Assembly (NCBI GenBank): GCA_023261645.1
Contig: JAHFOO010000003.1
Coordinates: forward strand, 31,951 to 95,950
DNA length: 64,000 bases
Direction: 5' to 3'
Source: Candidatus Moraniibacteriota bacterium
GTDB lineage: Bacteria; Patescibacteriota; Minisyncoccia; Moranbacterales; UBA1568
Shown: piece after piece, positions 14,751 through 61,118 of the stretch
How the letters are laid out: each line of letters begins with the position of its first letter
How positions within the stretch are numbered: the first letter of the stretch is position 1
Notes under the pieces: model-generated
What the model saw: only the letters and a program-made list of their open reading frames with translations
Databases searched by the model: none
Told to the model about the DNA's origin: nothing
Made by a program: the position numbers and the translations under genes

Positions 14751-14756
14751 ATTTTT

Positions 14757-15497
14757 TTAACTTTTTTTCATATCTTCCTCGATCATATCAAACGAATTCT
14801 GATTAATGACATCAGAAACGATTTTCCCATCCACCATACTGACAATTCTCGAACTGAACTTATACTGATCCGTGTTGTGCGTCACCATCAGAATGGTGAT
14901 GCCAAACTGCTTTGAAATATTTCTCACAAGTGTCATCAGTACCTCTCCTGCTTTCATATCGAGGTTGCCAGTCGGCTCATCAGCAATGATGAACTTCGGA
15001 TTAAGCAGGAGCGAACGAGCAAGAGCGATCCGTTGTTGCTGACCTCCGGAAAGATCGAATGGACGATGATTTGCCCACTCTCCCATCCCCACAAGTTCAA
15101 TCAGTTTGGCAGCAATAGTGACGCTTTCGTGAAATGTCTTGCCAGCGATAACTCCTGGAATGGCGATATTTTCGATTACTGTCAATGATTTGATCCAAAA
15201 TGGCTGTTGCGGAATAAAACCAATATTTTTATTCCTGAAATTTGCTCTCCAGTCCTTGCTCTGGGTCCAAATATCGTCGAGCTCGATAGTAACCGTTCCT
15301 TCTGTGGGGCTTTCGAGACCATAAATGGTATGAAGAAGCGTCGATTTTCCACAACCGGAAGGACCAACTAACAATATGAACTCACCTTTACGAACTTCAA
15401 GGTTGATACCGTGTAACACCTGAATGTCTTGAGTTCCTACGCGAAAAGACTTCTTCAGATTCATCACTTTGATAACAATTTCTTTTTCTTCGACCAT
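14757..15497 (-). CDS. ABC transporter ATP-binding protein (MacB/LolD-type)
   Basis: Walker A GPSGCGKST, signature LSGGQQQRIALARSL, Walker B IIADEPTGNLD. Confidence 0.9.
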   Translation of the reverse strand: MVEEKEIVIKVMNLKKSFRVGTQDIQVLHGINLEVRKGEFILLVGPSGCGKSTLLHTIYGLESPTEGTVTIELDDIWTQSKDWRANFRNKNIGFIPQQPFWIKSLTVIENIAIPGVIAGKTFHESVTIAAKLIELVGMGEWANHRPFDLSGGQQQRIALARSLLLNPKFIIADEPTGNLDMKAGEVLMTLVRNISKQFGITILMVTHNTDQYKFSSRIVSMVDGKIVSDVINQNSFDMIEEDMKKS

Positions 15498-23954: not shown

Positions 23955-25067
23955 ATGAAATCTATGCACAAGAAAAAAATCATCGTCACTCTTCTTTCAA
24001 TTCTGATACTCTTTATTCTCGCTTCGAATTTTTCTCGCAAGAAAACAGTTTCTGTCGAAGAAATACCCAAAAAACCTCTCACGGTCTCTGTTCAAAGTGT
24101 TTCTGAGAGCAAAACTATCACGCAAAAAAGAAGTTTCCCGGCCAGCATCGTCTCCGACCAAGAAGTAAAAATTACCGCGAAAATTGCCGGAACAGTTACC
24201 ATAGCTCCTGGCGCTCTCGGAGAAAAGATATCCAAAGGATCACTTCTCGCACGCATAGACGATCTGGGAGCACAGGCTATCGGAGATCAAGGACTGAGAA
24301 ATCTTCAAGTCCAACAATCCTCTCTCAGCGTCGAACAAGCCAAAAAATCGTACAATCTCACAAAACAAACCTACGATGATCTGAAGAAATCTTCGAGTGC
24401 TACCAGCGCACAAAAGGATACTGCCAAAACACAGAGAGATATCGCCAAATTACAGTATGAAAGCGCCATACTGGGATTAAATGGCACTATCGACAATCAT
24501 TCCGTCCTCTCTCCTCTCTCGGGCACCATCACAAGCAGAGCCGTTTCAGTCGGAGATTCCGTTTCGGTCGGACAGCTGATAGCCACAGTCAGTCAGTCTT
24601 CCACAGTGAAGGTTCAATTTTTTGTCGATGCCGAAGAAAGGAGTACACTCACGCGGGGACAGGAAATTTCTGCAATTGATACTGCTGGCACTTCTTTCCC
24701 ACTCGTAATAAAAAATATCGCTATCACAGCTGACCCTGTCACCAGACACTTTCTCATTGAAGCCTATCCGAAGAAACAAGATGCTTCTCTCCTCGCCGGT
24801 ACGATCATGACTGTCTCTTTTGAGACAATTATCAGACCAAAGACGGAAGATGCCCTTCTTCTACCATTGTCTGCTCTCAGTATCAGCCAAAATGAAAGCT
24901 CTCTTTTTATCGTAGAAAATAATACCGCGAAAAAAGAAGTGATTACCATACAAAACATCAGCGGAGAGAATGCTGAAGTCCTCTCTCATATTCCATCCGA
25001 ATCACTCATCATCATAGAAGGAAGCAAGCTCGTCACCGATGGACAACCAGTCGTCGTGGAAAACTAA
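23955..25067 (+). CDS. Efflux RND periplasmic adaptor subunit (HlyD/MFP family)
   Basis: N-terminal transmembrane/lipobox-like segment, a coiled coil, a lipoyl-like VSPLSGTITSRAVSVGDSVSVGQLIATV, and a beta-barrel C-terminus. Confidence 0.75.
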   Translation: MKSMHKKKIIVTLLSILILFILASNFSRKKTVSVEEIPKKPLTVSVQSVSESKTITQKRSFPASIVSDQEVKITAKIAGTVTIAPGALGEKISKGSLLARIDDLGAQAIGDQGLRNLQVQQSSLSVEQAKKSYNLTKQTYDDLKKSSSATSAQKDTAKTQRDIAKLQYESAILGLNGTIDNHSVLSPLSGTITSRAVSVGDSVSVGQLIATVSQSSTVKVQFFVDAEERSTLTRGQEISAIDTAGTSFPLVIKNIAITADPVTRHFLIEAYPKKQDASLLAGTIMTVSFETIIRPKTEDALLLPLSALSISQNESSLFIVENNTAKKEVITIQNISGENAEVLSHIPSESLIIIEGSKLVTDGQPVVVEN

Positions 25068-25094
25068 TCTCCCTCTAAAAATATCTCTCATCGT

Positions 25095-28000
25095 ATGGAA
25101 CATCCGAAAGAACCTCTCTCAACCGACAGCGTATATCTGAGTACACTCGAATTCACCCCCGAAAAACGCCATACCTGGCTCAATTTTTTCGTTTCAAATT
25201 TCCGTGTCGTCATCCTTCTTATTATGCTTATCTCGGGCTGGGGCATTTATTCCTTCCTCAACCTCCCTCGGGAATCCAACCCGGAAGTGAAAATCGCCAC
25301 AGCGATAGTCAGCGTCACTTATCCGGGGGTTTCCCCTTCTGATATGGAGGAACTCATCACCAAGAAAATCGAAACGGACATCTCCAGTGTCACTGGCGTG
25401 AACAAAATCACTTCTACTTCTGCCAACTCATCTGCCACGGTGGTCGTGGAATTCGATGCTGATCAGAATGTCGATGATGCCGTAAGAAGGTTGCGTGACA
25501 CGCTTCCGACCATCAGAAGAGATATCCCGACAGACGCCAATGATCCTGTGGTCAAAGAAATTTCCTTCGATGATACTCCTATCGTCACTTTTGCACTCAG
25601 TGGGCCTTACGATGGTTTCATACTGAGGACATACGCCGAAAAGATTCAAGACGAACTCGAGAAGATTCCAGGCGTCCGTGAGGTGGATATTTCTGGTGGC
25701 GATCAAAGTGAATTTGAAGTGGCCTATGATCCGAAGAAGCTTGTTCTCTTCGGCATCACGGCAGACCAAGCCAATCAAGCCATAACCACCGCCAACAAAG
25801 CCATTCCTGCTGGAAACTTTGAAGGCTCGACATTCAGTTATTCTCTCCGCTCTGACGGCCGTTTCTATGATAGAGAGACACTGCGTACGATTCCTCTCAT
25901 TCATACCTCTTTAGGCGCTATCGTGTATTTGAAAGACATCGCGGATGTGAAAGAAAAAGCCAGAGAGAAAACAACCTACTCGCGTTTTTCCCTAAGTGGT
26001 GAAATGCCGGAAAACGCCGTCACACTTCAAATCATCAAGAGAACAGGAGGATCGATCATTGATACTGTGGGCAGTGCCCGCATCAAAATCGATGAACTCC
26101 TCAAGACTTTCCCATCTGATATCACTATTTCAGACACGGTCAATCAGTCCGATCGTATCAAAAAAGATTTTGATCAACTTACTCATGATTTCCTCCTCAC
26201 ACTTATTCTCGTCGTCGGTCTCCTCTTTCTTATCGTTGGACTGAAAGAAGCGTTTGTCGCTGGTATCGCTATTCCTCTCGTTTTTTTCGTCACCTTCGGA
26301 GTGATGCAAGCGACAGGAACATCACTCAATTTCCTTTCCATTTTCGCTCTGCTTCTCTCGCTCGGACTCTTGGTAGACGATGCTATCGTGGTAGTTTCCG
26401 CTACCAAACAATATATGAAAACAGGCAAATATACGCCTGAGGAAGCCGTTTTGCTCGTTCTTTCTGATTTCAAAGTTGTCCTTGTTTCGACGACGCTTGC
26501 CACCGTTTGGGCCTTCCTTCCGCTCCTTCTCGCATCCGGAATGATCGGAAAATTTATCAAATCAATTCCCATCACAGTTTCAACAACACTCATCGCCTCT
26601 CTCCTCATCGCTCTTATGATCAACCATCCGTTGGCGGCTGTCCTCGAGAGGATCCGACTCACAAAAAAATTCTTCTGGATTATCTTCATTTCCATACTCG
26701 CTCTTGGAGCATTCTCCACGATACAGCATTCTTCTCTCGGATTCATTTTCACATTTTTTTCTTTCATACTTCTCGCATGGATGCTTTTCTGGTATTTCGG
26801 AAAAGGAACAAACATTCTTGAAAAGAATACGCTCCTCACGGAAGAAGAATGGGAGAGTGATGATAGTATCAAAGAAAAACTTCGCTCCCAAGGAGATCGA
26901 GAAAATTCCAGCTTCGGAAGCAAACTCATCCACGGCATCTTTCATTTCGACCGTATTCTTCCTGTATACGAGAAATACCTCCGCATTGCCACCAATACCC
27001 GAAAACACCGCATCATCACGCTTCTTTCTACGCTTGCATTGTTCATCTTTGCAGTAACCCTTCCGATTATCGGTGTTGTCAAATCAGAATTTTTCCCGCC
27101 TGCCGATGGCGATGCTTTGTATATAAGCCTGCGTGCTCCTATCGGCCTCAATCTTGATCAGACGGATATTCTGACACGAGAAGTTGAGAAAAGACTTTCA
27201 ACCACTCCAAACATAGTGAACTTCTCTACGATTATTGGAAACCCAGGATCAGGTGGTGGCTTCGGAGGAGGGAGTTCCAGCACATCGAATACCTCTTCTA
27301 TCACTATCAAACTCGTTCCAGAAGAAGAGCGCACTATCAAGGCGTATGATATCGCACAGCAGATACGCACGGAGCTTTCCGATATCGAAGGAGCTACCAT
27401 CACTGTTTCCACTCCTAGCGGTGGACCGCCATCCGGCAGTGCCTTCCAGGCTCAGATCGCCGGAGAAGATTTACAGACATTGGATAAAATTGCCACTGAT
27501 CTGAAACCGATCGTCGCTTCTCTTCCCGGTATTGTCAATGCAGATATTTCCCTCAAAGACGCTCCGGCTGAATATACATTTGCTCTTGATAACGCCAAAA
27601 TGGAGCTGTATGATATCAACGCGGTAGTTGTCGGTGGAACACTGCGAACAGCTCTTTCCGGCACGACCGTGACGACCATCATCCGTGACAATAAAAATAT
27701 CGATGTCGTCGCTCGTTTCGACAAAGATTCTCTTCCTACACTGGAAACTATCCAGAATTTACAGATTCTCAACCTCAAAAAACAACCGGTATTCATCAAA
27801 GATGTCGCCACGGTACAACTCACTCCGACAGTCGATGCCATCACGCGTATCGATCAAAAAAGAACCGTTCTTCTGACCGCTGACGTCAGCGGTACGACCA
27901 ATGCTACTCAAGTCGTCAAAGAGTTTCAGGACAAAATCGCCAAAGAGTATGTCCTTCCCGAAGGGTATGCCATCACTTACGGCGGAGAGAATGAACAGAA

Positions 28001-28496
28001 TGCCGAATCGGTATTTTCCATCATCCGTGCAATGGCGATTGCAGCCGTACTCATCATCTCTACTCTCGTCATCCAATTCAATTCTTTCCGTAAAGCATTG
28101 ATCGTTCTTGTCACCCTTCCTCTCGCTCTTATCGGGGTGTTCATCGGTATGGCGATTCTCAATGTCAGCTTGAGCTTCCCAGGACTGATCGGTATTTTGG
28201 CACTCTTCGGTATTGTCGTGAAAAATGCCATCATTTTGATCGATAAGATAAATCTCAACGTGAAAACCGGTATTCCTTTCGATGATGCCATCATCGATGC
28301 TGGAAAATCTCGTCTCGAAGCTATCATCATCACGTCCATCGTCACTATCGCCGGCATCATACCGATTACCCTTTCGAATGCCACGTGGACAGCTCTCGGC
28401 TCAGTCATCATTTTCGGATTGTCTATCTCCTCTTTCTTCACTCTCTTCATCATTCCGACTCTCTATATGACATTCATCAATAAAAAAGAAAGATAA
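25095..28496 (+). CDS. RND-superfamily efflux transporter permease (AcrB/HAE family)
   Basis: A 1133-aa protein with 12 transmembrane segments, two large periplasmic loops, and the typical duplicated halves. Confidence 0.9.
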   Translation: MEHPKEPLSTDSVYLSTLEFTPEKRHTWLNFFVSNFRVVILLIMLISGWGIYSFLNLPRESNPEVKIATAIVSVTYPGVSPSDMEELITKKIETDISSVTGVNKITSTSANSSATVVVEFDADQNVDDAVRRLRDTLPTIRRDIPTDANDPVVKEISFDDTPIVTFALSGPYDGFILRTYAEKIQDELEKIPGVREVDISGGDQSEFEVAYDPKKLVLFGITADQANQAITTANKAIPAGNFEGSTFSYSLRSDGRFYDRETLRTIPLIHTSLGAIVYLKDIADVKEKAREKTTYSRFSLSGEMPENAVTLQIIKRTGGSIIDTVGSARIKIDELLKTFPSDITISDTVNQSDRIKKDFDQLTHDFLLTLILVVGLLFLIVGLKEAFVAGIAIPLVFFVTFGVMQATGTSLNFLSIFALLLSLGLLVDDAIVVVSATKQYMKTGKYTPEEAVLLVLSDFKVVLVSTTLATVWAFLPLLLASGMIGKFIKSIPITVSTTLIASLLIALMINHPLAAVLERIRLTKKFFWIIFISILALGAFSTIQHSSLGFIFTFFSFILLAWMLFWYFGKGTNILEKNTLLTEEEWESDDSIKEKLRSQGDRENSSFGSKLIHGIFHFDRILPVYEKYLRIATNTRKHRIITLLSTLALFIFAVTLPIIGVVKSEFFPPADGDALYISLRAPIGLNLDQTDILTREVEKRLSTTPNIVNFSTIIGNPGSGGGFGGGSSSTSNTSSITIKLVPEEERTIKAYDIAQQIRTELSDIEGATITVSTPSGGPPSGSAFQAQIAGEDLQTLDKIATDLKPIVASLPGIVNADISLKDAPAEYTFALDNAKMELYDINAVVVGGTLRTALSGTTVTTIIRDNKNIDVVARFDKDSLPTLETIQNLQILNLKKQPVFIKDVATVQLTPTVDAITRIDQKRTVLLTADVSGTTNATQVVKEFQDKIAKEYVLPEGYAITYGGENEQNAESVFSIIRAMAIAAVLIISTLVIQFNSFRKALIVLVTLPLALIGVFIGMAILNVSLSFPGLIGILALFGIVVKNAIILIDKINLNVKTGIPFDDAIIDAGKSRLEAIIITSIVTIAGIIPITLSNATWTALGSVIIFGLSISSFFTLFIIPTLYMTFINKKER

Positions 28497-43459: not shown

Positions 43460-43674
43460 ACAAAGACATTTATAGGTTAATAATTGAGTCTCTCAGGTTC
43501 AAATCCGGTTGCTGGCCTGGAATGTAAAACCTATATAAGAGGAAAGAAAAATCGCCACTTTCCGTGACGATTCTCTCTTTCTCTCTGGACTTTCCCCACG
43601 GATAGGAACCGGTCACTTGAGAAATACTGATGTTGGCTCTGGCGGCAGGATTCGAACCTGCGACCAAGTGATTA

Positions 43675-44222
43675 CATTTCCCTCTTTGTTTCCAAAAAGA
43701 ATGGACTATATCATCTCCATCGCACGAAGCATTAGGAGTGAGGGGCTTCCCCTTCTATTCATCAGGGTACTCTCTCGCGAGATAGTCTCTGAACCTTCCT
43801 ACTCCTCTAGTAGGCTTGGCTGCTGATTACCATAATCGTGCTGAACAATCGTAGGCTTCCAGCAATTCACCTCATTCTTCACTTCTCGATTTCTCGAGAA
43901 GGCTGCGTAATTTGGAATGTTCTTCTCTGTGACAATTCGCACATATCAGAATACACTTATCTATTTCCTTCTGAACCCTTTCCCAGCTTCGGGTGAGTCC
44001 ATCTTGAGAGATCCCGAAATCCTTTCCGCCGAGAGCGTGATGGAATTCGAGTGCATCTTGACACTGCTTGTAACCACACAAAGAACATTCTCCGCCTTTA
44101 TACATAATCGCTTTTTGACGAATAGCCTTTCGGCGTTTCGCAACAGCGCGTTTTATGTACTCTCGGCGATCAGCATAGGATCTTTTTTCTGGCATATAGT
44201 GTCATATACCATAAATGTTTTC
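43675..44222 (-). ncRNA. Group I self-splicing intron (IC3-like) inserted between anticodon positions 35/36 of tRNA-Asn
   Basis: Minus-strand sequence after the HNH ORF stop contains the four group I core elements. P-like is AATTGCTGGAAG. Q-like is AATCAGCAGCC. R is the exact GTTCAGAGACTA. S-like is GATATAGTCC. The intron starts with G after an exon U and ends in G. Confidence 0.7.
43872..44195 (-). CDS. HNH homing endonuclease encoded within the group I intron
   Basis: CSLCGYKQCQDALEFHHALGGKD...ICANCHREEH is the classic HNH motif with two Cys pairs and HH. The ORF begins 27 nt into the intron and ends immediately before the P element. Confidence 0.8.
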   Translation of the reverse strand: MPEKRSYADRREYIKRAVAKRRKAIRQKAIMYKGGECSLCGYKQCQDALEFHHALGGKDFGISQDGLTRSWERVQKEIDKCILICANCHREEHSKLRSLLEKSRSEE

Positions 44223-48543: not shown

Positions 48544-49398
48544 CTACTTCTGTCCAACAATCACAAGGATATCAGTACCGGGATTTACTTCTCCATCCGG
48601 GAGTGTCGCTACGATTTTTCCGCCAATAGTTTCTGCAAGCTTGGTAACAAAATCGGCATTTTTTCCCGAGAGATCAATAACCTGTGTCTCCGTATAATCA
48701 CTTTTTACTGCTTTCTCTTTCTTTTCCACTGTTACTGCGGGAAATTTCGCTATAATACTGTCTTCGAGCGTATTAGTGGCACCAATTTTCATCGTCCCAT
48801 TATACAAGGCCAGCCTCAATGAAATAGGAGTCTCTGCCGGTGTAGTCGTTTGTTCGCCGACTACCGCCTCTTTTGGTACGTCTACGGCAGACGATACATC
48901 CGTGACAGGAGCAGTTGCCTTGATGTCAGTCACATTGATTGTCGTAACATCAATAATTTTCCCAGTTGAAGGTCTGTACAGAATGGCTTTCTTCGCATTC
49001 GTATAAAGGAGCACCTTATCGCCATTCTCGGCCCTATCGAAAAAAGATGATTTTTCAAGTTTTGATTTATCATTAATCGTAGCCAGTGTCGGTGTCTCAT
49101 CGGGTAATTCCATCAATTTTCCGATACTATTTTTTACCTGTGCCAATTCATCTTCTGCCGTCTTGGTGACAGGAACATTTTTATACTGAAAATAAAAATA
49201 TACGGCTACTCCGGAGGCAACTACAAATAGAATAAAAAGAGTGAGGAAAGACGAGATGAGAAGGGTGTTTTTTTTCTGATTACCACTTAATGGTACTGAT
49301 TTGACAGTCGCATCTCTCAACCCTTCTCCCTTCTTTTTCGAAAAAAAAGACATATGTTTATTTATTTTAAATTTATCCACCTTCAGTATAACAAACAA
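48544..49398 (-). CDS. Membrane-anchored LytR_C (LytR/CpsA/Psr C-terminal) domain protein
   Basis: Transmembrane helix, then a C-terminal ISLRLALYNGTMKIGATNTLEDSIIAKFPAVTV...DILVIVGQK matching the LytR_C domain pattern. The likely start is the internal ATG giving MSFFSKKKG (49353). Confidence 0.5.
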   Translation of the reverse strand: MFVILKVDKFKINKHMSFFSKKKGEGLRDATVKSVPLSGNQKKNTLLISSFLTLFILFVVASGVAVYFYFQYKNVPVTKTAEDELAQVKNSIGKLMELPDETPTLATINDKSKLEKSSFFDRAENGDKVLLYTNAKKAILYRPSTGKIIDVTTINVTDIKATAPVTDVSSAVDVPKEAVVGEQTTTPAETPISLRLALYNGTMKIGATNTLEDSIIAKFPAVTVEKKEKAVKSDYTETQVIDLSGKNADFVTKLAETIGGKIVATLPDGEVNPGTDILVIVGQK

Positions 49399-51379: not shown

Positions 51380-54300
51380 TTAATAATCCGTCTCTACATA
51401 CAGCGATGCAACGTCGATTCCAACAGCAAGAGCTGTGAGATTGTTGGTTCTCCAAAATCTTGCTGCCAAAAAAGTGGTACTGGCAGGAAGCTGTGTCCCA
51501 GCCGTCGCTGCAGTAATCGTGCCCGTAGCGACATCTCCGGTATTAAGTCTTGTTACTCGATAATTTACAACATTATTAACATTAGTAGGAGCATAAAGTA
51601 TCAATTCATACATATCAACCGAGAGAGTGTTTGCTGGGAAGTTAACACCCAGATCAATTGGAGTCTGTGGTGCGGAACCACCATAACATAATTTCATATT
51701 AGTATCAGCCGCACCACTACAAAGTCCTATGCTATTCGTAAGCGTGCTCGGCTCGACATTTGTCGGCGCAGCCGTTGCAGAAGACAGCCCTACAAACTCT
51801 CGGGCACCGGTTACAGTAGCGGCATCACTCGATCCAAAACGAGAGACATAGGTAAAGCCTCCTAATCCCGCACCATCACCGATTGTATATTGCATACTAC
51901 CTTGACGCAGGCTTCCCAATGTTCCAGCTACCGCAGTTGAAACTACTCCTGCTCTTTTAAGACGCGTAAACATACGGGTAGTTGCGACACTTCTTGTTGT
52001 CATAGTGGTCCCACCATTTGAAACTACAGTCATTGCCGCCATACCAAGAACTCCAGGTGCTGTCGTCGCATTTCCAGGTGGATTCCACCATGCTACTTTG
52101 TTCATTGCCACCATTGGTTGCACAATGGAATCAAGCCCCGATGGACCAATCCATTTCGGCATCATTCTGCCTGCGACTGATTTTGAATAGAGAAGCATCT
52201 TTCCAGTAGCTGGAGCCGATGGTTCATTGGTTATTCCATTTAATAATACCTCACCATCTGTACCATTGATTCCCAAGGTTTGTGTTGTCTTGTTGAAGGT
52301 AAATCCTGCATCACCACTTTCTGTTCCGGCGTCATTGAAAGCAACCTGTGTATCACTTCCGATCGGACCGCCACCACCCGCTCCGATACAATCGGTCCAA
52401 GTTGTATTTTGATAGCAACGAAACTTGTTACTGTTCTGATTGTAATACATCGTTCCTTCGATGGCTGTAGCTGGATCACCAGCGTCACTCTTGGCATCAA
52501 GAGCGAGGAGGTCTGGCGTAGTAGATCCTGCTCCACCCGTACCGATCTGCACGTTACCTTCTGCAGTATCTTCTGGGACGAGGTTGATACCACCAGTGCC
52601 CGATTTGATGGTCGTCGTCGATGACGTCGTTGATGAACCAAAGGTAACCGTCTTGATAGCAGCCCCCGTAGCGATATTGATGGTTTCGTTTGATGCGTCA
52701 TCACCAATAGAGAGTGCTCCTGTCGTACCCGAATTGATCGTAAGAGCTGATGCTGTAGCAGAAGAGAGAGTCACGATACCCGCACCGGTATATGATTGAT
52801 TGTTCGCAATAGAAACACCGCCGGTATCCGTAGTGACTGAATCAGCATTCAAAATATCCTGGATATCGACGGTACCACCGGCATTCACTACCATCGTCGC
52901 CTGATTACTGGTGATACCGGTCGCGTTGTTGATAGCCAATGCTCCAGCCGTGATTGTCATTCCGCCAGAAGCAATAGAGATACCGGTTGTCACGCCCGTG
53001 CCGATAGCGATACCGGTACCGACATTGTTACCGATATTGATACCAGTTGCGATAGATCCGGCTGTTTCTGTAATCTGGATGCCACTCGTCATCGTACCGG
53101 CTCCGGTCTGCTCAATGAGCATCCCGTTGGTGAGAGTGCCTGAAGCAATAGAGTTAAAAATTCTTTCTGCTGAAACACCAGCCGTATCCTGATTTTCTAC
53201 CGTAAATGAAGTTGGCGTCGCCACTTCACCAAGAGTATAAGCAATGTTTCTTCCTGTTGTAGTCAGAATGGTATTACCACTGGCGGTATCATACGAAGTT
53301 TGGAGAGTGCTACTACCGCCCGCTCCAATACAATTCGTCCAAGTAGCTCCCTGATAACAACGAAATACATTATCAAACGTGTTGTAATACAGCGCACCCT
53401 CAAAACCACCGGCAGGATCTCCTGTAGTTGATTTCACATCAAGAGCGAGGTAGTCAGGCGTCGTCGAACCAGCACCGCCAGCCCCAATCTGAACCGTAGC
53501 GATCGTACCCGAACCTGCTGGCTGCAATGTGAGGTTCCCTGAAGTATTAGTAATGCTCACATTCGGTGCCAACGTCATTGTGGCAATACCAGAAGCTGTC
53601 AAAGCGGTGTCAGAAGAAGCAATCGTGAGAGTGTTTGAGCCTGAATCAAGGGTCAACCCAGTTGTCGTCGAGGCAATAGTCCCTGTTCCTGCAAAAGTGA
53701 GTGCTGTAGCACTTGTTGCAATCGTATCCAGAGAAGCCACACCAGTAAGAGCGCCTCCAGTCGTGACATTGAGGCCACCAGATGAAGTCAAAGCAAAAGT
53801 ACCGGTGGCATTGCCGATGGTCGTGGTGGCTGTACCGGTTGAGTTGATAAGGGTTGTACCTGTAATCGTCGTAGCATCATTGAGACTGATGATGCCAGCA
53901 CCATTAGCAACAAGAGTGAGATCTTCACCGGTTCCGGTGGTGATATCGGTTGTCGCACCCGTAAAAGTAAGTCCAGTCGAGCCAATAATTTTGTTGGTCA
54001 GTGTCTGACTCGTACCCAAATCAGCAAGCGTGATCGTACCCGACGGAAGCGTAGCTATTGTTGAAGCTGTGGCCGTTAATGTTAGGGGAAAAGCACCGGT
54101 CGTTGTGAATGCATCAGAAAACTGAATGGTCTTGCCATTTGGGATAGTAAGAGTACCAGTGGTATCCGTGACTGAGAGACCGTGTACTTTGTCGGCGTTC
54201 AGAGCATACGGTGCCGTGGTGAAGTGAACGAGCGGTGTCATCTGTCCGTTACTATTAAAGTTGATACCGAGGTAAATGTTATCGGTATTGAAATCGATGA

Positions 54301-54631
54301 GAGAAGCGAAAGCAGTCGTATCGCCGAGATTGGTCTGAAAAATACCATCAGCCGTGGTGATGCTTTTCGATTCTTTCCATACGGCGTCGTTATTGGAACC
54401 GGCTGTACAGGGTGTCACCGGACTGGCGGTCGTGTACACACAAAACAAGAAGTTATAACTGGCATTGGCGACGTTGGTACCATCGGTATTCGTAACTTTT
54501 CCTTGGAAGTTGATCTGTTTGTTGATACCCGTAGTCGCCTCTGCTGTTTGAACTACATAAAAAAAGAGAAGCAGGCTGGCCAAGGCCACCGCTTTACTTC
54601 TGAAGAAATTCTTTGTATTTTTGGTTTTCAC
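51380..54631 (-). CDS. Large (1083 aa) secreted Thr/Gly-rich repeat protein with an internally duplicated ~330-aa module
   Basis: Signal peptide and long G/T/A-rich beta-helix-like tracts. Two copies of a module end in GSTTPD[YL]LALD[VA]KS..GDPA...YYN....FRCYQ..TWT[ND]CIGAGG. Confidence 0.6.
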   Translation of the reverse strand: MKTKNTKNFFRSKAVALASLLLFFYVVQTAEATTGINKQINFQGKVTNTDGTNVANASYNFLFCVYTTASPVTPCTAGSNNDAVWKESKSITTADGIFQTNLGDTTAFASLIDFNTDNIYLGINFNSNGQMTPLVHFTTAPYALNADKVHGLSVTDTTGTLTIPNGKTIQFSDAFTTTGAFPLTLTATASTIATLPSGTITLADLGTSQTLTNKIIGSTGLTFTGATTDITTGTGEDLTLVANGAGIISLNDATTITGTTLINSTGTATTTIGNATGTFALTSSGGLNVTTGGALTGVASLDTIATSATALTFAGTGTIASTTTGLTLDSGSNTLTIASSDTALTASGIATMTLAPNVSITNTSGNLTLQPAGSGTIATVQIGAGGAGSTTPDYLALDVKSTTGDPAGGFEGALYYNTFDNVFRCYQGATWTNCIGAGGSSTLQTSYDTASGNTILTTTGRNIAYTLGEVATPTSFTVENQDTAGVSAERIFNSIASGTLTNGMLIEQTGAGTMTSGIQITETAGSIATGINIGNNVGTGIAIGTGVTTGISIASGGMTITAGALAINNATGITSNQATMVVNAGGTVDIQDILNADSVTTDTGGVSIANNQSYTGAGIVTLSSATASALTINSGTTGALSIGDDASNETINIATGAAIKTVTFGSSTTSSTTTIKSGTGGINLVPEDTAEGNVQIGTGGAGSTTPDLLALDAKSDAGDPATAIEGTMYYNQNSNKFRCYQNTTWTDCIGAGGGGPIGSDTQVAFNDAGTESGDAGFTFNKTTQTLGINGTDGEVLLNGITNEPSAPATGKMLLYSKSVAGRMMPKWIGPSGLDSIVQPMVAMNKVAWWNPPGNATTAPGVLGMAAMTVVSNGGTTMTTRSVATTRMFTRLKRAGVVSTAVAGTLGSLRQGSMQYTIGDGAGLGGFTYVSRFGSSDAATVTGAREFVGLSSATAAPTNVEPSTLTNSIGLCSGAADTNMKLCYGGSAPQTPIDLGVNFPANTLSVDMYELILYAPTNVNNVVNYRVTRLNTGDVATGTITAATAGTQLPASTTFLAARFWRTNNLTALAVGIDVASLYVETDY

Positions 54632-54649: not shown

Positions 54650-55135
54650 TTATCTCGGTAACACGACGTCTTGAGGCTGATTACTTTTTACTTCAAGTAC
54701 CGAAGAGTCAAACCCTGCCAAAGCGTCGGCCTGTGCTCGACTCACAGCGTTATTCTTCGCTTCAAGTTCAGAAATTCTATCCGACATTTGACTGAAAATG
54801 ACCGCTGTCACAATGAGAATGAGAGAAAGGACAAGTGTGATAGCTATCAACCAATACTTCCCAGAAAGCTCGTTTTTTCTTTTTTCAAAAAATTGGGTGG
54901 TTTTCCCCTGAGAGATGATAACTTCATCTGGTTTTTTGTCCGCAAGATACTCATTGAGCCATGAAATAGTGGTCAACCATTTATGCCCCTTCTTTTCCGC
55001 TTTGAGCAGTCCGCGCCGAGAAAGCAAACTTAGATACTCCTGACTATACGAGCAGAGTTTGGAAGCGTCCCACATAGAGAGATATTCGGTATTCATATAT
55101 TTTTTTGAGAGAGATACTCGTGATAGCAAGCTCAC
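54650..55135 (-). CDS. HTH (excisionase/MerR-like) domain membrane protein
   Basis: N-terminal YLSMWDASKLCSYSQEYLSLLSRRGLLKAEKKGHKWLTT resembles HTH_17/excisionase-type DNA-binding domains. It is followed by one transmembrane helix and a C-terminal coiled-coil tail. Confidence 0.4.
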   Translation of the reverse strand: MSLLSRVSLSKKYMNTEYLSMWDASKLCSYSQEYLSLLSRRGLLKAEKKGHKWLTTISWLNEYLADKKPDEVIISQGKTTQFFEKRKNELSGKYWLIAITLVLSLILIVTAVIFSQMSDRISELEAKNNAVSRAQADALAGFDSSVLEVKSNQPQDVVLPR

Positions 55136-55305: not shown

Positions 55306-55908
55306 CTATTCCTTCGTTTTCCATTCGAAATCTTTAAGAATATTTTCCAAATCTCCTCGTAATGTTTCAAGGGAAAATGGAGAAGTAGTAGAAATGCTCA
55401 GAATAGAATTATCTTTCTGGAAAAACACCGTCTGTTCGAATACTTGAGAGTTTTTCGTAAAAAGAGCTCCGTCAAGATCTTGCCATTTGAGTGACGACTG
55501 TTCGTATGTTTGGGAATCATTGCGACGCATCTGAAACGCCGGTGAAGCATTAAGTGTGTTTGTTTCGCGCTTCTCTGCAGTAATGGCTATTTTCTTTCCT
55601 TCCGTATCGATAGCGGAAAGGAGAAGACCTTCTTCAATCGGACCGGTCTCTGAAAATGTATGTGAGGTTTCTCGATATTTTCCAGGATACGAGAAACTGA
55701 AAGAGGTTCCCGAAAAGTGTTTGGTTTCCGTTTTTTGATCAAAACTCTCCTCTTGCTTGGGGAGTGTTCCAGAACGAATTACGCCGACAGCAGAAGTTCG
55801 AAGGAAAATCCATAAAAAATACAGTCCCACACAAAGAAAGGTCGCTATGAAAAAGAATATCGAAAACTTGTACTTTCGCTTCATCTTATTTCGTTTATTT
55901 TGTCTCAT
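55306..55908 (-). CDS. Hypothetical membrane-anchored protein
   Basis: N-terminal transmembrane helix (FSIFFFIATFLCVGLYFLWIFL). No domain recognised. Confidence 0.4.
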   Translation of the reverse strand: MRQNKRNKMKRKYKFSIFFFIATFLCVGLYFLWIFLRTSAVGVIRSGTLPKQEESFDQKTETKHFSGTSFSFSYPGKYRETSHTFSETGPIEEGLLLSAIDTEGKKIAITAEKRETNTLNASPAFQMRRNDSQTYEQSSLKWQDLDGALFTKNSQVFEQTVFFQKDNSILSISTTSPFSLETLRGDLENILKDFEWKTKE

Positions 55909-56842
55909 TTGAGCCTTTTCTATGATATTTTACCACGAACCACACTACCAATACGACAAGAAGAATACCCGTCCCGATAGCAGGCAGAGGGATGAAATAA
56001 AATTGAAACGATGTGGATGAAAAATCGTCTTTTCCATCATATCGGAAACTCATATCCATCGTATAGCGTCCTGGTACGAAACTGAAGAGAAGCGTTTTGA
56101 GACGGACAGGATAGATACGGAATGTCTCAGGAAGAATAATTGATGATTCCTCATTGATGATACCTTTGGCAACAATGCGTCCAAAAGGATCAGTCACAGT
56201 TGCTATGCCCCGCGGTACAAGATGGACGTTACCATTATTCTGGAAACGTAGACGAAGCATATTCTGAAATCGTATCAGGGTATGCTCATAGTCCTGTCTG
56301 TTCAATCGAAGATCAGAGATTTCACCACCGACTTTCTTGACGAAAACGAGCGTCGAGAAGAGTTGATTGACAGAAACCGTCTCTCCTCCGGCGTTTTCTT
56401 CAGTGTTTCCTTGGCCACTCTTCTCTGTCTTGAATGTCAGGGCGCCATAGTGTCCGCCAGGAGACAGACCTTCGCGATTTTCTATGGTGATGAGAATCTT
56501 CTTCGTTTCATTGGGTTCGAGCATAAACACATCTTTTTCCGGGCGTATCCACGAAGCGAGAGCGTATTTTTTCTCCAGATCGTTCGTTGCACCGAGGAAA
56601 GCCACTCCGCCGGATTCATCCAAACTGCCGAAATCAAAAACAGCGATACGGAGTGTCACCGCTTCATCCGTGGTATTGGTGACAGAAACGAAAAAATCTG
56701 TTTTTGTATCTTTCGTCTCAAGGGTAATTTCTTGAAAGGCGGGGCTCAGAGTGATACCGCTTTGAACATTTTCAGCATAAACCATCCCTCGTGGGGAGAA
56801 CATTACCACAACGATAAAAAGAGTAAACAAAAAAAGCCTCAT
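55895..56842 (-). CDS. Cell-surface protein, DUF916/DUF3324-like (signal peptide + beta-sandwich + C-terminal TM anchor)
   Basis: Signal peptide and Ig-like beta-rich domains. C-terminal transmembrane helix and basic tail (FIPLPAIGTGILLVVLVVWFVVKYHRKG). Confidence 0.4.
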   Translation of the reverse strand: MRLFLFTLFIVVVMFSPRGMVYAENVQSGITLSPAFQEITLETKDTKTDFFVSVTNTTDEAVTLRIAVFDFGSLDESGGVAFLGATNDLEKKYALASWIRPEKDVFMLEPNETKKILITIENREGLSPGGHYGALTFKTEKSGQGNTEENAGGETVSVNQLFSTLVFVKKVGGEISDLRLNRQDYEHTLIRFQNMLRLRFQNNGNVHLVPRGIATVTDPFGRIVAKGIINEESSIILPETFRIYPVRLKTLLFSFVPGRYTMDMSFRYDGKDDFSSTSFQFYFIPLPAIGTGILLVVLVVWFVVKYHRKGSNETK

Positions 56843-56865
56843 GAAATTTAAATTTGGTTTGGTTT

Positions 56866-57951
56866 CTACTTCTTTATTCGTTTGAAAAGCTTATTCCAAA
56901 CAGTACGTACCGTGGAACGGAAACCTACGAAGAAAAAAATGGCAATAACAGTAAGTGCAATAAGCATCCGCCAAGGCACCACCCAAAAGGTCACCTCTCC
57001 TTCAATAGGTACGTCCCGATGTCCATCATCATAGATGAGGAGGAGATTGGCGGTATACTTTCCAAAACGGAGTTTGGACGTATTGTTCCAATCCCATTTG
57101 AGTTCATAGACAGGATTCCCCTCTCCATCAAGAACCGTCTTGCCGTCTTGTGTTTTCTCCGTATAGACAGGAAAGCCATCGTTCCATTTGGTATCGAATA
57201 TACGGCTTGAATTCGGCAATATATTGCCCTTTTCGCTGTTCACTTCAAGAATAGCAATATTCTTTGTATTCCCTTGATTGATGAAGATGTTTCCTCTCGG
57301 AGCGATATGGACACTTCCAGTGTTTTTCAGCTTCACGCTGAATGTTGTCGGAAGAAATTCATAGAATTTCTTGTCGACAGAGAATTCTGTCACACTCACT
57401 TCTCTCTTGGCATCCGGAACTCGCGCTTCAAGGAGAACGAGAATGGCCGTACCCCCGACAAGGGCTGTCTGTCGTGTTTCAAGCTGTGCTCCATCATCCG
57501 CTCGAGAGAAAACAAAGGCATAGTAATATCCGAAAGAGGCGGTCGATGGAACGACAAACGTCGCAGTGATCGTTTTCCATTCATCGGGAGCCAAAGTGAA
57601 TGTCGGTTCTGAGAATGTTACCCAGTTCAAGAAATCATCACCCGCTTCTCTCTCCAAGAGTTGTGGCTTGCCAGACTCTTCGTACGCATTGAATTTCATC
57701 AGGTCGATCTTGAGCGTTTCTTTCTGTGTACCACCATTCTTCACCTTGAGTTCCGTTGTGATGGTCTTGCCTGGTTCGGTGACAAGGTTGATAGGCAATG
57801 GTGAAGTGATGAGACGGAGTCCTGCATCGGTAGTTTGGGCGGAGACGGAAAAAGCAAGCGAAAGAGAACAAACAAAAAGAAAAAGGAGGCTGAAAAAAGT
57901 CACTTTGAAAGAAAAATTTGTAGGAAATATATGCATAAGGATTATCATCAT
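56866..57951 (-). CDS. Cell-surface protein, paralogue of 55895..56842 (C-terminal TM anchor)
   Basis: Same architecture. C-terminal WRMLIALTVIAIFFFVGFRSTVR plus a basic tail. Confidence 0.4.
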   Translation of the reverse strand: MMIILMHIFPTNFSFKVTFFSLLFLFVCSLSLAFSVSAQTTDAGLRLITSPLPINLVTEPGKTITTELKVKNGGTQKETLKIDLMKFNAYEESGKPQLLEREAGDDFLNWVTFSEPTFTLAPDEWKTITATFVVPSTASFGYYYAFVFSRADDGAQLETRQTALVGGTAILVLLEARVPDAKREVSVTEFSVDKKFYEFLPTTFSVKLKNTGSVHIAPRGNIFINQGNTKNIAILEVNSEKGNILPNSSRIFDTKWNDGFPVYTEKTQDGKTVLDGEGNPVYELKWDWNNTSKLRFGKYTANLLLIYDDGHRDVPIEGEVTFWVVPWRMLIALTVIAIFFFVGFRSTVRTVWNKLFKRIKK

Positions 57952-58169
57952 AATACCATATTCCTCTTTTTGTACCTAGAATTCACCTTTCATCAAGAGT
58001 CTCTTATCTCTAGAAATAATGGGCATTGAACCCCGGGGCAAGCCCTAGACACAATCCCTCCGCGGCAAGCCGCGGAGTATTGACCCAATTTTACTAGCAC
58101 TCGCTCGGTAATGAAAACCCTCCTTCCATCGAAGGAAAGAGGTCTATCTTTTTTAACGAGAACGGAAAA

Positions 58170-59285
58170 CTAGAATCGTCCAGCAGCCACAACTGTCAAC
58201 GTATCCGTATAATCCGTCGCTGCAGGTTGAATAGCGGTGATTTTGGCACGTTCGATGAGGGTCAGAACATCACCATCGGTCGTACCAGAGGATGCTGCAA
58301 TCGGTTGGAATGTCGTTGCAAGCGTACCTCCGGAAGTAGTATTGGTACCGTTGTACTCTGCCCCATAGTTAGAGGCCTGAGAAACCGTACCTGTACCCGT
58401 AGCACTATCAGTCGTGATATCCACATCAAGGACATATCCTACAAGAGAGGCAAGATCGGATGGTGCATTGTCGAGAGAGCCGGCCGTAGCGATAGTGGTA
58501 CTGGCTGAAGCGGAGGAAAGGCCAGCATTGGCACTCTTGACCCAAGCGACCCAACCTAAAGCGGCATTCGTTGCGATAGTGACTGTCTTACCGGCAGTAG
58601 AAGCGGTTGTCGTAGAAAGATTACCAGAGAAAGTGTCCGTATTCCCACTCAAAGCGAAGGTGAAAGTAGCAGGCACAGTGGCTGTCACCACGATCTGATC
58701 ATTGGTCACGATAGAGAGAGCAAAATTGGAGCTATCAATAGCAGTCGGTCCGGCGAGTTGCGTGGTGATAGTCCCTACCAAATTGTTCCCGGCAGTAGGA
58801 TTGGTCAATGTGGTTGTTCCGGTAAAATTGAAACAATACAGCGTTCCGACAACCATATCACCGCTCGGAAAAGTGACATCCTGACCAGTGGCTGCCGAAG
58901 CGGTACCGATACCGATCCACGCTGTCGCATCCGTAGGGATATTGGTCGTCGTCACGGTCCAGTTCGCAGGAGTATCCACCGTAGCGAATCCTGTCGGAAA
59001 GGTCACTTTGACCGTCGTTTCTATAGAAGCCGTGACAGATTTGGCACAAACCATCCCGCCCGTGGTCGTAGAGGCAGCCAAACGATCGAGACGAACAGAA
59101 GATTGCTGGAGTCCGGCTGCTTCAGCTTTCTCAACACCCAGAAAAAATGGAAAGACAAAAATAAACAAGAAAGAAAGAACCGCTACCGACATCACGCTTC
59201 GTGTCAACTGTTTCATAGAAAAAGGTTCGCAATTTATTTTTATTATTATGTATTGAGAGAATAAAAAGATTCTTTCTGCAGTCAT
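58170..59285 (-). CDS. Secreted Thr/Gly/Ala-rich surface protein with conserved C-terminal motif (WxL/SCPU-like)
   Basis: Signal peptide and T/A/G-rich beta-rich body. C-terminus is ...PAATDYTDTLTVVAAGRF. Confidence 0.4.
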   Translation of the reverse strand: MTAERIFLFSQYIIIKINCEPFSMKQLTRSVMSVAVLSFLFIFVFPFFLGVEKAEAAGLQQSSVRLDRLAASTTTGGMVCAKSVTASIETTVKVTFPTGFATVDTPANWTVTTTNIPTDATAWIGIGTASAATGQDVTFPSGDMVVGTLYCFNFTGTTTLTNPTAGNNLVGTITTQLAGPTAIDSSNFALSIVTNDQIVVTATVPATFTFALSGNTDTFSGNLSTTTASTAGKTVTIATNAALGWVAWVKSANAGLSSASASTTIATAGSLDNAPSDLASLVGYVLDVDITTDSATGTGTVSQASNYGAEYNGTNTTSGGTLATTFQPIAASSGTTDGDVLTLIERAKITAIQPAATDYTDTLTVVAAGRF

Positions 59286-59339
59286 TGTATCACTTTTTTC
59301 ACCGGAAGTTAATCCTTTGTCAAGACTGAAAAGAAAAAA

Positions 59340-60413
59340 TCAAAAGCTGGCAGAGGCGATAACAGTCAATGTTTCTGTGTAATCACTGGCAGAAGGAGTC
59401 ACTGCAGATGATTTCGCTTTGAGGAGGAATGACCCACGGCCATTGGTTGTCGGAGCGGAGGCGGTAAATATCTCACGAATACTCGTATCGATAATACCCA
59501 CGTTGCTCCCCGTCTGATCGTAGAGCGTTGCGATGGTCAACCCATTGGTAGCTGTCGATTTCTGTGCACCAAAACCTTCATCCAAAGCAGTCAAATTGCC
59601 TGTCACGGCATCGATCGTATACCCGGCACGGGTACTCGTTAGCCCTGCACTATTGGAAACGACATAGACACGTCCCCCGCTCTCACCATTGGTGATGAAA
59701 TCCACCCAGATCTTCTCCGGACTGTCTGTCACTGTCCCCGCAAATAAATCCCCAAAGTTTGTTGCTGTAACGTTGTTGTCTGCATCAGATGCCGAAACAT
59801 CGATATCAAAGGTCATCTGAGGATTGACGGTCGCCGTGGTCGCAGTCGGGCCATAACCGGTTTCGGTGAATTTTCCTTGCCATGCATTTACTTTTACTTG
59901 ATACGTCGTACCGGCCGTGAGACCTATGATAAGAGTGCCACCTGCTCCTCCCCAGGTCGTATATGTCTGGTAGTCTTCATTGCCACGTACTGCACCTACC
60001 GTATCATCACTTTGTACATAGCGTGTATCACTCACAAAACCATCCGTACTGATAGCAATAGAAAATTTCGTATCACTTGGATTGTTTCCTGTATCGAGGA
60101 CTATTTTCAATTTATTATAATAATTGCTCGGATTGGTAAATGTCGGAGCCGGAGGAACATTGGCCTGATTGGTGAAAAGAAGTCCTGAACCGAGACCGTA
60201 ATCCGTACTGGAAAGTTTTCCATTGCTTTGTTCGCCACTTACCCCATCCAAAGCATAGTTTGTGGATGTCGCATCTCCTGCTCCGCCTGTTCCAAAACCG
60301 AAATCCTTGAGCTGATAGTTCGTGCTGGCCGGAAAAACGAATATAAGAAAAAACCCTAGAGGAAGTGAAAAAAACTTTTTGTAAAAAGAAATAGTTGTGA
60401 AGCCTTTCCTCAT
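59340..60413 (-). CDS. Secreted Thr/Gly-rich surface protein, paralogue of 58170..59285
   Basis: Signal peptide. C-terminus is ...PSASDYTETLTVIASASF, sharing the DYT[DE]TLTV motif. Confidence 0.4.
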   Translation of the reverse strand: MRKGFTTISFYKKFFSLPLGFFLIFVFPASTNYQLKDFGFGTGGAGDATSTNYALDGVSGEQSNGKLSSTDYGLGSGLLFTNQANVPPAPTFTNPSNYYNKLKIVLDTGNNPSDTKFSIAISTDGFVSDTRYVQSDDTVGAVRGNEDYQTYTTWGGAGGTLIIGLTAGTTYQVKVNAWQGKFTETGYGPTATTATVNPQMTFDIDVSASDADNNVTATNFGDLFAGTVTDSPEKIWVDFITNGESGGRVYVVSNSAGLTSTRAGYTIDAVTGNLTALDEGFGAQKSTATNGLTIATLYDQTGSNVGIIDTSIREIFTASAPTTNGRGSFLLKAKSSAVTPSASDYTETLTVIASASF

Positions 60414-60428
60414 AAGTAAAGTATATCT

Positions 60429-61118
60429 CTATTTTCCGAGAACAATCGTGACTTGAGAAACGGAGGTTTCTTTATTTTTCGTATCGGCCGGTGATGTCTT
60501 CGCTTGTGGATATTTCTTGACGAAAGTAGATTTGATCATTTCTGCTTCCTTGTCGAGACCGGAAGCGAAATAAATGACGACTCCAGCGTAATCTTTCAAG
60601 GTATTCCCGGCTGTAACACTGGTATATCCTTCTCCCTTCAAGAAAGTAACGGCTACTCCGGCACTGCCTTTGGTTCCTCCGCCATTCAGGACGCTGATCG
60701 CTATTTTCTTGACGGTTGCGCTATCGATCGTATTCATTTTCTCATCAGGTTGTTTCGTCTGTTCTCCATCCGATGTCTTCGTTTCGTCGGCAGTACCGAC
60801 ATTTTGCTGTTCGTCCGCTTGCTGTGACAAGACGGATATGGATGGTTCGGCTTTCACCAAACGATTATTCCTCCATCCTACATAGACGCCCCATCCTATG
60901 GAAGCGATGCTCACTATCACGAAAAGTAGCATACAAGCAAACAAAATCCCTCCCCACAATGACTCGTATGAACGTTGAGAGGTTCTCTTCTCAGGTTGGG
61001 AATTGACTTCATTTTCTTCTGATTTTGTACTTGATATTTCCTCCGCCTCTGTTGGTATTTCTGACATAGATATTTTTCTTTTAAGTACTCTCATTATACC
61101 ACAGGAAACAAAGAACAA
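60429..61118 (-). CDS. Membrane-anchored LytR_C domain protein
   Basis: Transmembrane helix, then ISVLNGGGTKGSAGVAVTFLKGEGYTSVTAGNT...VVIYF typical of the LytR_C domain. Confidence 0.5.
   Translation of the reverse strand: MFFVSCGIMRVLKRKISMSEIPTEAEEISSTKSEENEVNSQPEKRTSQRSYESLWGGILFACMLLFVIVSIASIGWGVYVGWRNNRLVKAEPSISVLSQQADEQQNVGTADETKTSDGEQTKQPDEKMNTIDSATVKKIAISVLNGGGTKGSAGVAVTFLKGEGYTSVTAGNTLKDYAGVVIYFASGLDKEAEMIKSTFVKKYPQAKTSPADTKNKETSVSQVTIVLGK

Follow-up and report, generated by a model that had tools for sequence, protein, structure and literature searches.

What kind of surface structure is specified by four successive genes in a Candidatus Moraniibacteriota genome, two of which encode secreted proteins and two of which encode membrane-anchored proteins? 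The genes, named here pil4, pil3, chap and chap1, lie on the minus strand of a 64,000-nucleotide (nt) stretch of contig JAHFOO010000003.1, and this whole stretch is referred to below as the window. The bacterium is an ultrasmall member of the Candidate Phyla Radiation (CPR; Patescibacteria), a group presumed to spend its life fixed to other microbial cells, and the mechanism of contact is largely unknown outside the Saccharibacteria. A sequence-only reading of the locus had proposed a WxL-like cell-surface complex that would be new for this lineage. The comparisons described here point instead to a divergent, usher-less donor-strand pilus operon of the CPR type that resembles the Pam pilus of a saccharibacterium, described in 2026; two related subunits would form thin surface filaments, aided by the two membrane-anchored, chaperone-like proteins. 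We assign this a probability of about 0.65, and the filament itself is a prediction from the genes. The Pam pilus occurs in the same superphylum and is a closer precedent than the WxL complexes, so that surface complexes of this general type are not entirely new for CPR bacteria.

Two paralogous pairs and the Pam precedent

The five open reading frames (ORFs) described between 55895 and 61118 were confirmed at these positions, all on the minus strand, and the proposed arrangement of four successive genes as two paralogous pairs was supported by significant similarity within both pairs. The membrane-anchored proteins Chap and Chap1 showed 26% identity over 247 amino acids (aa; E=3e-14), and the C-terminal 156 aa of the secreted proteins Pil3 and Pil4 were 31% identical (E=3e-8). 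With a threonine content of 15-19% and this shared C-terminal domain, Pil3 and Pil4 are also the threonine-rich secreted pair that had been described.

The reading as a CPR pilus starts from Pil4. The NCBIfam model NF058579 (CPR_pilus_PamT) matched aa 28-83 of this protein (E=3.4e-6; profile positions 27-82 of 241), and matches to the same model were found in 12 of 42 pil4 orthologues (best E=1.5e-8), which leads to the Pam system as precedent. In the Pam pilus of the saccharibacterium Ca. Mycosynbacter amalyticus, filaments seen by cryo-electron microscopy consist of PamA and PamB. The N-domain of these pilins is a nine-strand beta-sandwich, one linker strand follows, and the C-domain is a truncated immunoglobulin (Ig)-like fold that takes up the linker from the adjacent subunit (bioRxiv 10.64898/2026.03.03.709456). 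In the same system, PamC and PamD are PapD/FimC-like chaperones that retain a C-terminal transmembrane (TM) helix, PamT is a tip with an acceptor domain only, PamR is an RbmA-like, TM-anchored terminator, a tail-fibre-like gene co-localizes with the pam operons, for which an ATP-synthase neighbourhood is also reported, and conservation among the pilins is highest in the linker and in the groove of the C-domain (bioRxiv 10.64898/2026.03.03.709456).

Conservation within the pil3 family followed the pattern published for PamA and PamB, the linker and the C-domain being the best-conserved parts of Pil3. Of the representatives obtained by clustering at 50% identity, 113 with 36-62% identity to Pil3 were compared, and the three most conserved 9-mers were ATDYTDTLT in the C-terminal strand (0.79), VTATVPATF in the linker (0.73) and TNAALGWVA in the C-domain (0.70), compared to a mean of 0.50, and the final residue was F or Y in 113 of 113. 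The DY..LT motif was present in 46 of 46 pil3 and 39 of 42 pil4 orthologues; D-Y-T-D-T-L-T was invariant across the former, and in the latter D-Y and the next residues were invariant or nearly so. This shows that the shared C-terminal motif DYT[DE]TLT noticed earlier is real and kept in orthologues.

In the AlphaFold2 (AF2) monomer model of Pil3, the N-domain (aa ~50-140) was predicted as a beta-sandwich with a predicted local distance difference test (pLDDT) score of ~80, and the orthologue alignment showed an invariant cysteine pair in this domain. The linker (aa 156-201) scored below 45 and the C-domain 50-68 with a low-confidence fold, giving a model mean of 60. Such a weak prediction of the linker and C-domain is as expected of a subunit that would be completed by a strand from another chain, and is not proof of it. 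A Foldseek comparison of this model, with its mean pLDDT of 60, with the PDB gave only generic beta-sandwiches (BslA, cohesin, YcnI), and when the PDB was searched by sequence, Pil3, Pil4 and the family profile gave chance matches or none.

Pil4 was shown to consist of a signal-like N-terminus, the PamT-like motif region, an FN3-like middle part (weak fn3 matches in 5 of 42 orthologues) and a C-terminal acceptor-type domain (aa ~202-357) that is paralogous to the C-domain of Pil3. At the position of DQIVVTATV in Pil3, Pil4 shows the end of the FN3-like region (PTATTATV), without alternating hydrophobic residues. Judged by these features, Pil4 would have an acceptor domain and no evident donor, as would be required of a tip subunit. 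Since the 241 positions of PamT would suffice for a signal peptide, this motif and a single C-domain, Pil4 may be compared to a PamT that carries an FN3-like insertion.

Chap and Chap1 each contain an N-terminal hydrophobic, signal-like segment and a single C-terminal TM segment. The AF2 model of Chap (pLDDT 83.5) begins with a signal helix, continues with a pair of beta-sandwich domains and ends in a long TM helix. In Foldseek comparisons with the PDB, V. cholerae RbmA was the top match (4.4e-10), followed by the archaic chaperone CsuC (4.7e-10), and the best template-modelling scores were obtained with E. faecium WxLIP (9i25_C, 2.2e-9; 9i1y), which is the best bacterial structural match. Further structural matches were CfaA (the CFA/I chaperone), EcpB, YadV, FimC and PapD, and the fold of Chap was about equally close to WxLIP, to RbmA and to the chaperones of chaperone-usher systems. 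On the basis of this model, Chap and Chap1 appear to be PapD-like two-domain, membrane-anchored, chaperone-like proteins, of which Chap1 would be a second chaperone or a base anchor. The combination by which Pam chaperones are recognized, a PapD/FimC-like fold and a retained C-terminal TM helix, was found in this pair.

From these components we infer strand exchange, an order of subunits, filament formation and host attachment as follows. All components would be exported via Sec, and Chap and Chap1, which their C-terminal helices would keep in the cytoplasmic membrane, would cap the incomplete Ig-like C-domain of new subunits. Pil4 would start the fibre as distal tip, because it has an acceptor domain without a donor linker, the PamT-like motif and the FN3-like region. 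Copies of Pil3 would be added at the base, each placing its linker strand (..DQIVVTATVPATF..) into the C-domain of the subunit before it. A membrane protein that has N-domain and linker but no acceptor domain and is encoded elsewhere, or else Chap or Chap1, would close and anchor the fibre, the likely function of which would be attachment to a host cell.

Distribution, gene order and anchor-type relatives

Three word-indexed homology searches with the secreted and Chap queries recovered only close Moranbacteria orthologues, all annotated as "hypothetical protein" and none leading to a named Pam protein, and the nearest relatives carry the labels Candidatus Moranbacteria or Moraniibacteriota. 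By exact sequence, Pil4 was traced to a 295-kb metagenome contig (ENA ERZ27279942). With clustering at 50% identity, an exhaustive profile search for the pil3 family recovered 609 cluster representatives, of which 293 scored below 1e-30. As placed by record titles, the family is found mostly in Moranbacteria, and single or few loci were from Paceibacteria, Andersenbacteria, Berkelbacteria and WWE3. Divergent family members from WWE3-, Saccharimonadales-, Pseudomonadales- and Gammaproteobacteria-titled loci matched no Pam model in NCBIfam. Many records of metagenome-assembled genomes with the cluster were titled "uncultured Bdellovibrionales", "Pseudomonadales" or "Gammaproteobacteria" (L003, L006, L010 and others); their gene content and the 40-85% identity to Moranbacteria proteins suggest that such titles are placeholder or wrong taxonomy.

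Selection of one genome per species gave 79 loci, which were scanned with a profile of each window protein. The gene order was found to recur in whole or in part across these loci, so the synteny check that had been suggested for related genomes turned out in favour of a conserved cluster. In most Moranbacteria-type loci the order, whole or in part, was (malic enzyme)-LytR_C-pil4-pil3(x1-2)-chap(x1-3)-chap1-orf200-fib1083. Berkelbacteria-titled loci (L065, L079) showed the Moranbacteria order without orf200, and a rearranged gene set (e.g., pil3-chap-chap1-pil4-fibre) was present in some records, among them ones titled WWE3 (L070) and Andersenbacteria (L045). A single copy of chap1 was located just downstream of chap, and directly beside it if chap was itself single, in nearly all loci reaching this position; in L028 two chap1 fragments were found, and the gene looks split. 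Several loci contained tandem pil3 duplicates, and chap was present in one to three copies (L010, L014, L018, L022, L038, L040, L057 and others). By analogy, two shaft pilins per locus would parallel PamA and PamB.

Among the best 150 of the 609 representatives (E<=6e-48), which were inspected, at least 19 were ~780-985 aa long and matched the pilin N-domain and linker only. These ~900-aa relatives contain a signal peptide, have extracellular domains of unrelated type after the linker, end with two to four TM segments, and are without the acceptor domain and the C-terminal motif. They retain the linker (e.g., NDQITITATVPP and FDQVEVTAIVPA), and their profile aligned to Pil3 only to ~aa 185, the linker end. 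Genes of this type adjoin the cluster in 4-5 of the 79 loci (L059, L074, L075 and L078; L072 is partial and without the pilin N-domain). Because they combine a predicted donor strand with a membrane anchor and have no acceptor, the ~900-aa proteins look like candidate base, terminator or anchor subunits of a pilus.

A Pam-like pilus weighed against other readings

The cluster and the Pam system have in common that they belong to the CPR superphylum, that all components are (here by prediction) Sec-exported and that PapD-like proteins are encoded which are anchored in the membrane by a TM helix at the C-terminus. Besides, the modelled anatomy of Pil3 is compatible with the Pam pilin layout, in which a conserved linker joins a beta-sandwich N-domain to a C-terminal domain, Pil4 shares the N-terminal motif with PamT, and a tail-fibre-like gene, here fib1083, adjoins both operons. 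In contrast to Pam, the lineage is Moranbacteria/Paceibacteria, two pilin genes are present compared to four pilin-like proteins in M. amalyticus (PamA, PamB, PamE, PamT), Pil3 has one cysteine pair compared to two or three, Pil4 has an extra FN3-like region, and LytR_C and PsbP-like genes are conserved partners. Likewise, the anchor candidates in relatives are ~900-aa multi-TM proteins with a pilin N-domain, whereas PamR is RbmA-like.

Several results weigh against the pilus. Sequence likeness to Pam, as seen with the NCBIfam models, is confined to ~56 aa of PamT, with PamA, PamB, PamC, PamD, PamE and PamR being compared by description, and NCBIfam gave no Pam match except this short N-terminal one. 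The Pil4 score of 26.7 bits, compared to an equivalog cutoff of 240, denotes a shared N-terminal motif and not equivalog membership. No Pam entry was recovered in PDB sequence and fold searches, in which the copies searched were without 25PZ and 25QA (PamA/PamB). The C-domain of Pil3 was modelled with low confidence, so its fold is not established by the AF2 monomer, and strand insertion is a prediction, the models being of single chains. The PapD-like/ASH fold is widespread and occurs also in the non-chaperones RbmA, Hydin and CEP192, and a profile search detected no anchor-type subunit in the 64-kb window. Finally, Pam pilins were reported mainly from Saccharimonadia and Microgenomatia, with Moranbacteria and Paceibacteria unmentioned (bioRxiv 10.64898/2026.03.03.709456).

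The WxL/Csc clusters of Firmicutes, in which WxL proteins are found together with WxLIP (DUF916-DUF3324-TM) (PMC10599100; PDB 9i1y, 9i25), offer a different reading of the same genes; WxL, DUF916 and LytR are unmentioned in the Pam preprint (bioRxiv 10.64898/2026.03.03.709456). Here, WxLIP-like proteins would stabilize two non-polymerizing secreted proteins on the wall by one inserted strand, forming a static adhesin and no filament. The layout is similar, with two TM-anchored proteins and two secreted partners sharing a C-terminal domain in single-membrane organisms, and for both systems it is predicted that the anchored protein inserts a strand into its partner. Common to WxLIP and the Chap model are a signal peptide, a perpendicular pair of Ig-like domains and a TM helix at the C-terminus. 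Pfam WxLIP_PGBD (DUF916, PF06030) was the top match of Chap1, below threshold (24.5 bits vs 27.3), and was seen in 7 of 40 chap-family members, compared to weak fn3_5 matches in 40 of 40. The earlier comparison of the anchored pair with DUF916/DUF3324 proteins thus stands with regard to the WxLIP-like structure, the layout of signal peptide and TM segment and the sub-threshold PF06030 match, but not with regard to DUF3324, for which the Pfam profile had no match in Chap or Chap1. For the secreted proteins, the WxL (PF13731) and spore coat U (SCPU; PF05229) profiles had no match at E<=1 in Pil3 and Pil4 and none at E<=0.1 in the 46 and 42 orthologues (88 in all). Two W-x-L motifs in the last 170 aa were found in 0 of 46, 0 of 42 and 0 of 113 sequences (0 of 201), and one motif in 7 of 113. 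The suggestion that the C-terminal strand resembles those of WxL and SCPU proteins was therefore in the right spirit as a pilin-like idea, but neither family was matched. The WxL label fails the defining tests for the secreted proteins, yet it captures a genuine structural kinship of the anchored ones. WxL proteins are not known to polymerize, the conserved linker and the anchored N-domain/linker variants are without counterpart in WxL clusters, and the PamT motif points to a CPR pilus, so that a static WxL-type complex is improbable.

A non-filamentous envelope or S-layer-like coat, in which threonine-rich, probably glycosylated proteins form a layer or act as monomeric adhesins and the anchored Ig-like proteins serve as RbmA-like scaffolds, also seems unlikely. 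It would agree with RbmA as top Foldseek match (E=4.4e-10), with the 15-19% threonine in the secreted proteins, with the strong cross-species conservation, as for a structural envelope protein, and with an LytR_C envelope protein at the head of the operon, but it leaves unexplained that the linker and the C-terminal strand are the top-conserved segments and that N-domain and linker are fused to membrane anchors without a C-domain. RbmA, a V. cholerae biofilm scaffold, has tandem FnIII-type domains like Chap; unlike Chap it is soluble and secreted, without a TM helix and without linked pilin-like genes, and an RbmA-like protein is itself a component of the Pam pilus. Acquisition of an archaic chaperone-usher (Csu/SCPU-type) pilus from Gram-negatives is very improbable, even though CsuC was the second Foldseek match (E=4.7e-10) and the PapD-like two-domain fold is common to Chap and the chaperone-usher pili (Pap/Fim, CFA/I, Csu). 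Y-x-D-T-x-T-V with a final aromatic residue looks like what we take to be the last strand of a chaperone-usher pilin, and incomplete Ig-like subunits, a donor-less tip and an acceptor-less terminator are common to these pili and the mechanism proposed here. However, no SCPU or fimbrial pilin profile matched, no usher profile matched among the cluster genes, and the identifiable titles of the family are CPR groups. In contrast to chaperone-usher pili, there is no outer membrane and no sequence similarity, no usher is evident in the cluster, the chaperone-like proteins are membrane-tethered and not soluble, and the donor would be an internal linker between domains and not an N-terminal extension. 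A sortase-type pilus was rejected, as the LPXTG motif was found in 0 of 201 family members of the secreted proteins, including the C-termini of Pil3 and Pil4, with the other cluster genes outside this check.

If the locus does encode a Pam-like pilus, the Pam-type pilus is not confined to Saccharimonadia and Microgenomatia. Moranbacteria and several further groups of CPR would then have it as a conserved and probably abundant surface organelle, for which tip, shaft, chaperone and anchor candidates are named here. The structural kinship with WxLIP also suggests that CPR pili may be connected in evolution with the WxL adhesion clusters found in lactobacilli, enterococci and Listeria. A wider proposal is offered only tentatively, as we consider it rather doubtful in its entirety: that the 609 clusters at 50% identity constitute a previously unrecognized, widespread Pam-type branch, that Pam pili and the Firmicutes WxL/WxLIP systems descend from one ancient single-membrane, usher-less system in which a tethered PapD-like chaperone donates a strand to secreted beta-rich subunits, and that the ~900-aa proteins are a new type of terminator or anchor.

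Extent of the locus and other elements in the window

Table 1. Coordinates of the genes, conserved segments and predicted signals of the cluster (window positions), and of anchor-type genes in related loci (positions within each locus).
Feature	Position	Strand	Remarks
LytR_C gene	60429-61118	minus	First gene of cluster
pil4 (tip-like subunit)	59340-60413	minus	357 aa
PamT-like N-terminal motif of pil4	60165-60332	minus	aa 28-83; three [ST]xNYxL-type repeats right after signal peptide
pil4 C-terminal strand motif	59343-59390	minus	ASDYTETLTVIASASF
pil3 (candidate major pilin)	58170-59285 as called; 58170-59216 revised	minus	348 aa from internal Met
Candidate donor (linker) strand of pil3	58650-58706	minus	aa 171-189; TNDQIVVTATVPATFTFAL
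pil3 C-terminal strand motif	58173-58220	minus	ATDYTDTLTVVAAGRF
Terminator-like hairpin and T-run	58119-58142	minus	Just 3' of pil3 stop, in 233-nt gap; consensus scan only
chap	56866-57951 as called; 56866-57936 revised	minus	356 aa
chap1	55895-56842	minus	315 aa; paralogue of chap
orf200	55306-55908	minus	Overlaps chap1 stop by 14 nt
Sigma-70-type promoter	55285-55257	minus	Perfect: TTGACA, 17 nt, TATAAT, TG extension; upstream of orf161 and fib1083
orf161	54650-55135	minus	Directly upstream of fib1083
fib1083	51380-54631	minus	1083 aa
Candidate anchor-type genes in related loci	L078 9648-12365 (-); L075 12725-14881 (-); L059 2610-4888 (+); L074 4290-6869 (+)		Proteins P0350, P0355, P0360 and others

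The synteny profiles showed that the conserved cluster reaches beyond 55895-61118, the extent described earlier, down to 51380 (Table 1), and the functional unit includes orf200 and most probably also the tail-fibre-like protein. Intergenic distances from the LytR_C gene to orf200 were, in order, 15, 123, 233, 23, and -14 nt; a 233-nt gap follows pil3 and a 170-nt gap follows orf200, and the others are short. As pil3 orthologues (65-96% identity) are ~348 aa long, the true start of pil3 is probably the internal Met at 59216. For chap, a start at 57936 is probable because the 100%-identical database protein is 356 aa, and for the LytR_C gene a start near 61067 is probable, given a public gene call of 212 aa. 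As a possible attenuator, the hairpin after pil3 may hold pilin transcripts above chaperone transcripts. A terminator-like hairpin between pilin and chaperone-type genes is a common layout for excess pilin transcript.

The protein encoded at 60429-61118 matched LytR_C (Pfam PF13399) with 39 bits compared to a cutoff of 22.2 (E=1.6e-9); it has a predicted cytoplasmic N-terminus, a TM segment at aa 50-82 and an extracellular LytR_C domain, and its gene was located directly upstream of pil4 in many of the 79 related loci. The locus had been described as bracketed by two LytR_C proteins, the other one at 48544-49398 (minus strand). This ORF carries an N-terminal TM segment, but it showed no LytR_C match, even when its C-terminal 93 aa were searched separately at E<=10, nor did it resemble the protein of 60429-61118, so its LytR_C identity was rejected. 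With only one LytR_C gene confirmed, the idea of cell-wall attachment through two flanking LytR_C proteins is not supported.

In most Moranbacteria-type loci orf200 comes after chap1; its product has an N-terminal membrane anchor and a weak PsbP/DcrB-like domain (PsbP_2, E=4.4e-4, sub-threshold). The fib1083 product is secreted, Thr/Gly-rich and tail-fibre-like, and its C-terminal 470 aa matched the phage family phrog_13925 (function unknown; E=1.5e-22), whereas no match was found in Pfam, NCBIfam or PDB sequences. The fib1083 gene adjoins the cluster in most of the 79 loci, rearranged ones included, and its product is possibly an adhesin or fibre. An internal duplication was observed in this protein, in which ..GAGGAGSTTPDYLALDVKS..YYN..FRCYQG..W.. 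occurs twice. LytR_C, orf200 and fib1083 are conserved partners for which roles in wall or envelope passage and as adhesin are reasonable guesses. In contrast, the small single-TM protein of orf161 was recovered in one other locus only (L043) at E<=1e-5, and its membership of the system is doubtful. Upstream of orf161/fib1083, a strong hairpin with T-run was seen at 55218-55191, within ~40 nt of the promoter at 55285-55257; it may terminate the upstream operon, in which case terminator and next promoter overlap, or may act as a leader/attenuator.

Elsewhere in the window, Rfam detected a group I intron (72 bits) at 43682-43926, within 43600-44020 (minus strand). An apparent tRNA 3' half (T-arm, acceptor, CCA) is located directly 3' of the intron, and an HNH-like ORF fragment (..CANCHREEH..) is located 5' of the match; ARAGORN called no tRNA in the whole 64 kb. 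The region 43600-44020 is probably an intron-split tRNA gene with a homing-endonuclease ORF. Furthermore, a gene for a Kelch-repeat protein of 2565 aa (15516-23213) adjoins a MacB/FtsX-type ATP-binding cassette exporter (13407-15497) and is followed by an HlyD and AcrB-like pair (23955-28496), and efflux of this resistance-nodulation-division type is notable for a presumed single-membrane bacterium.

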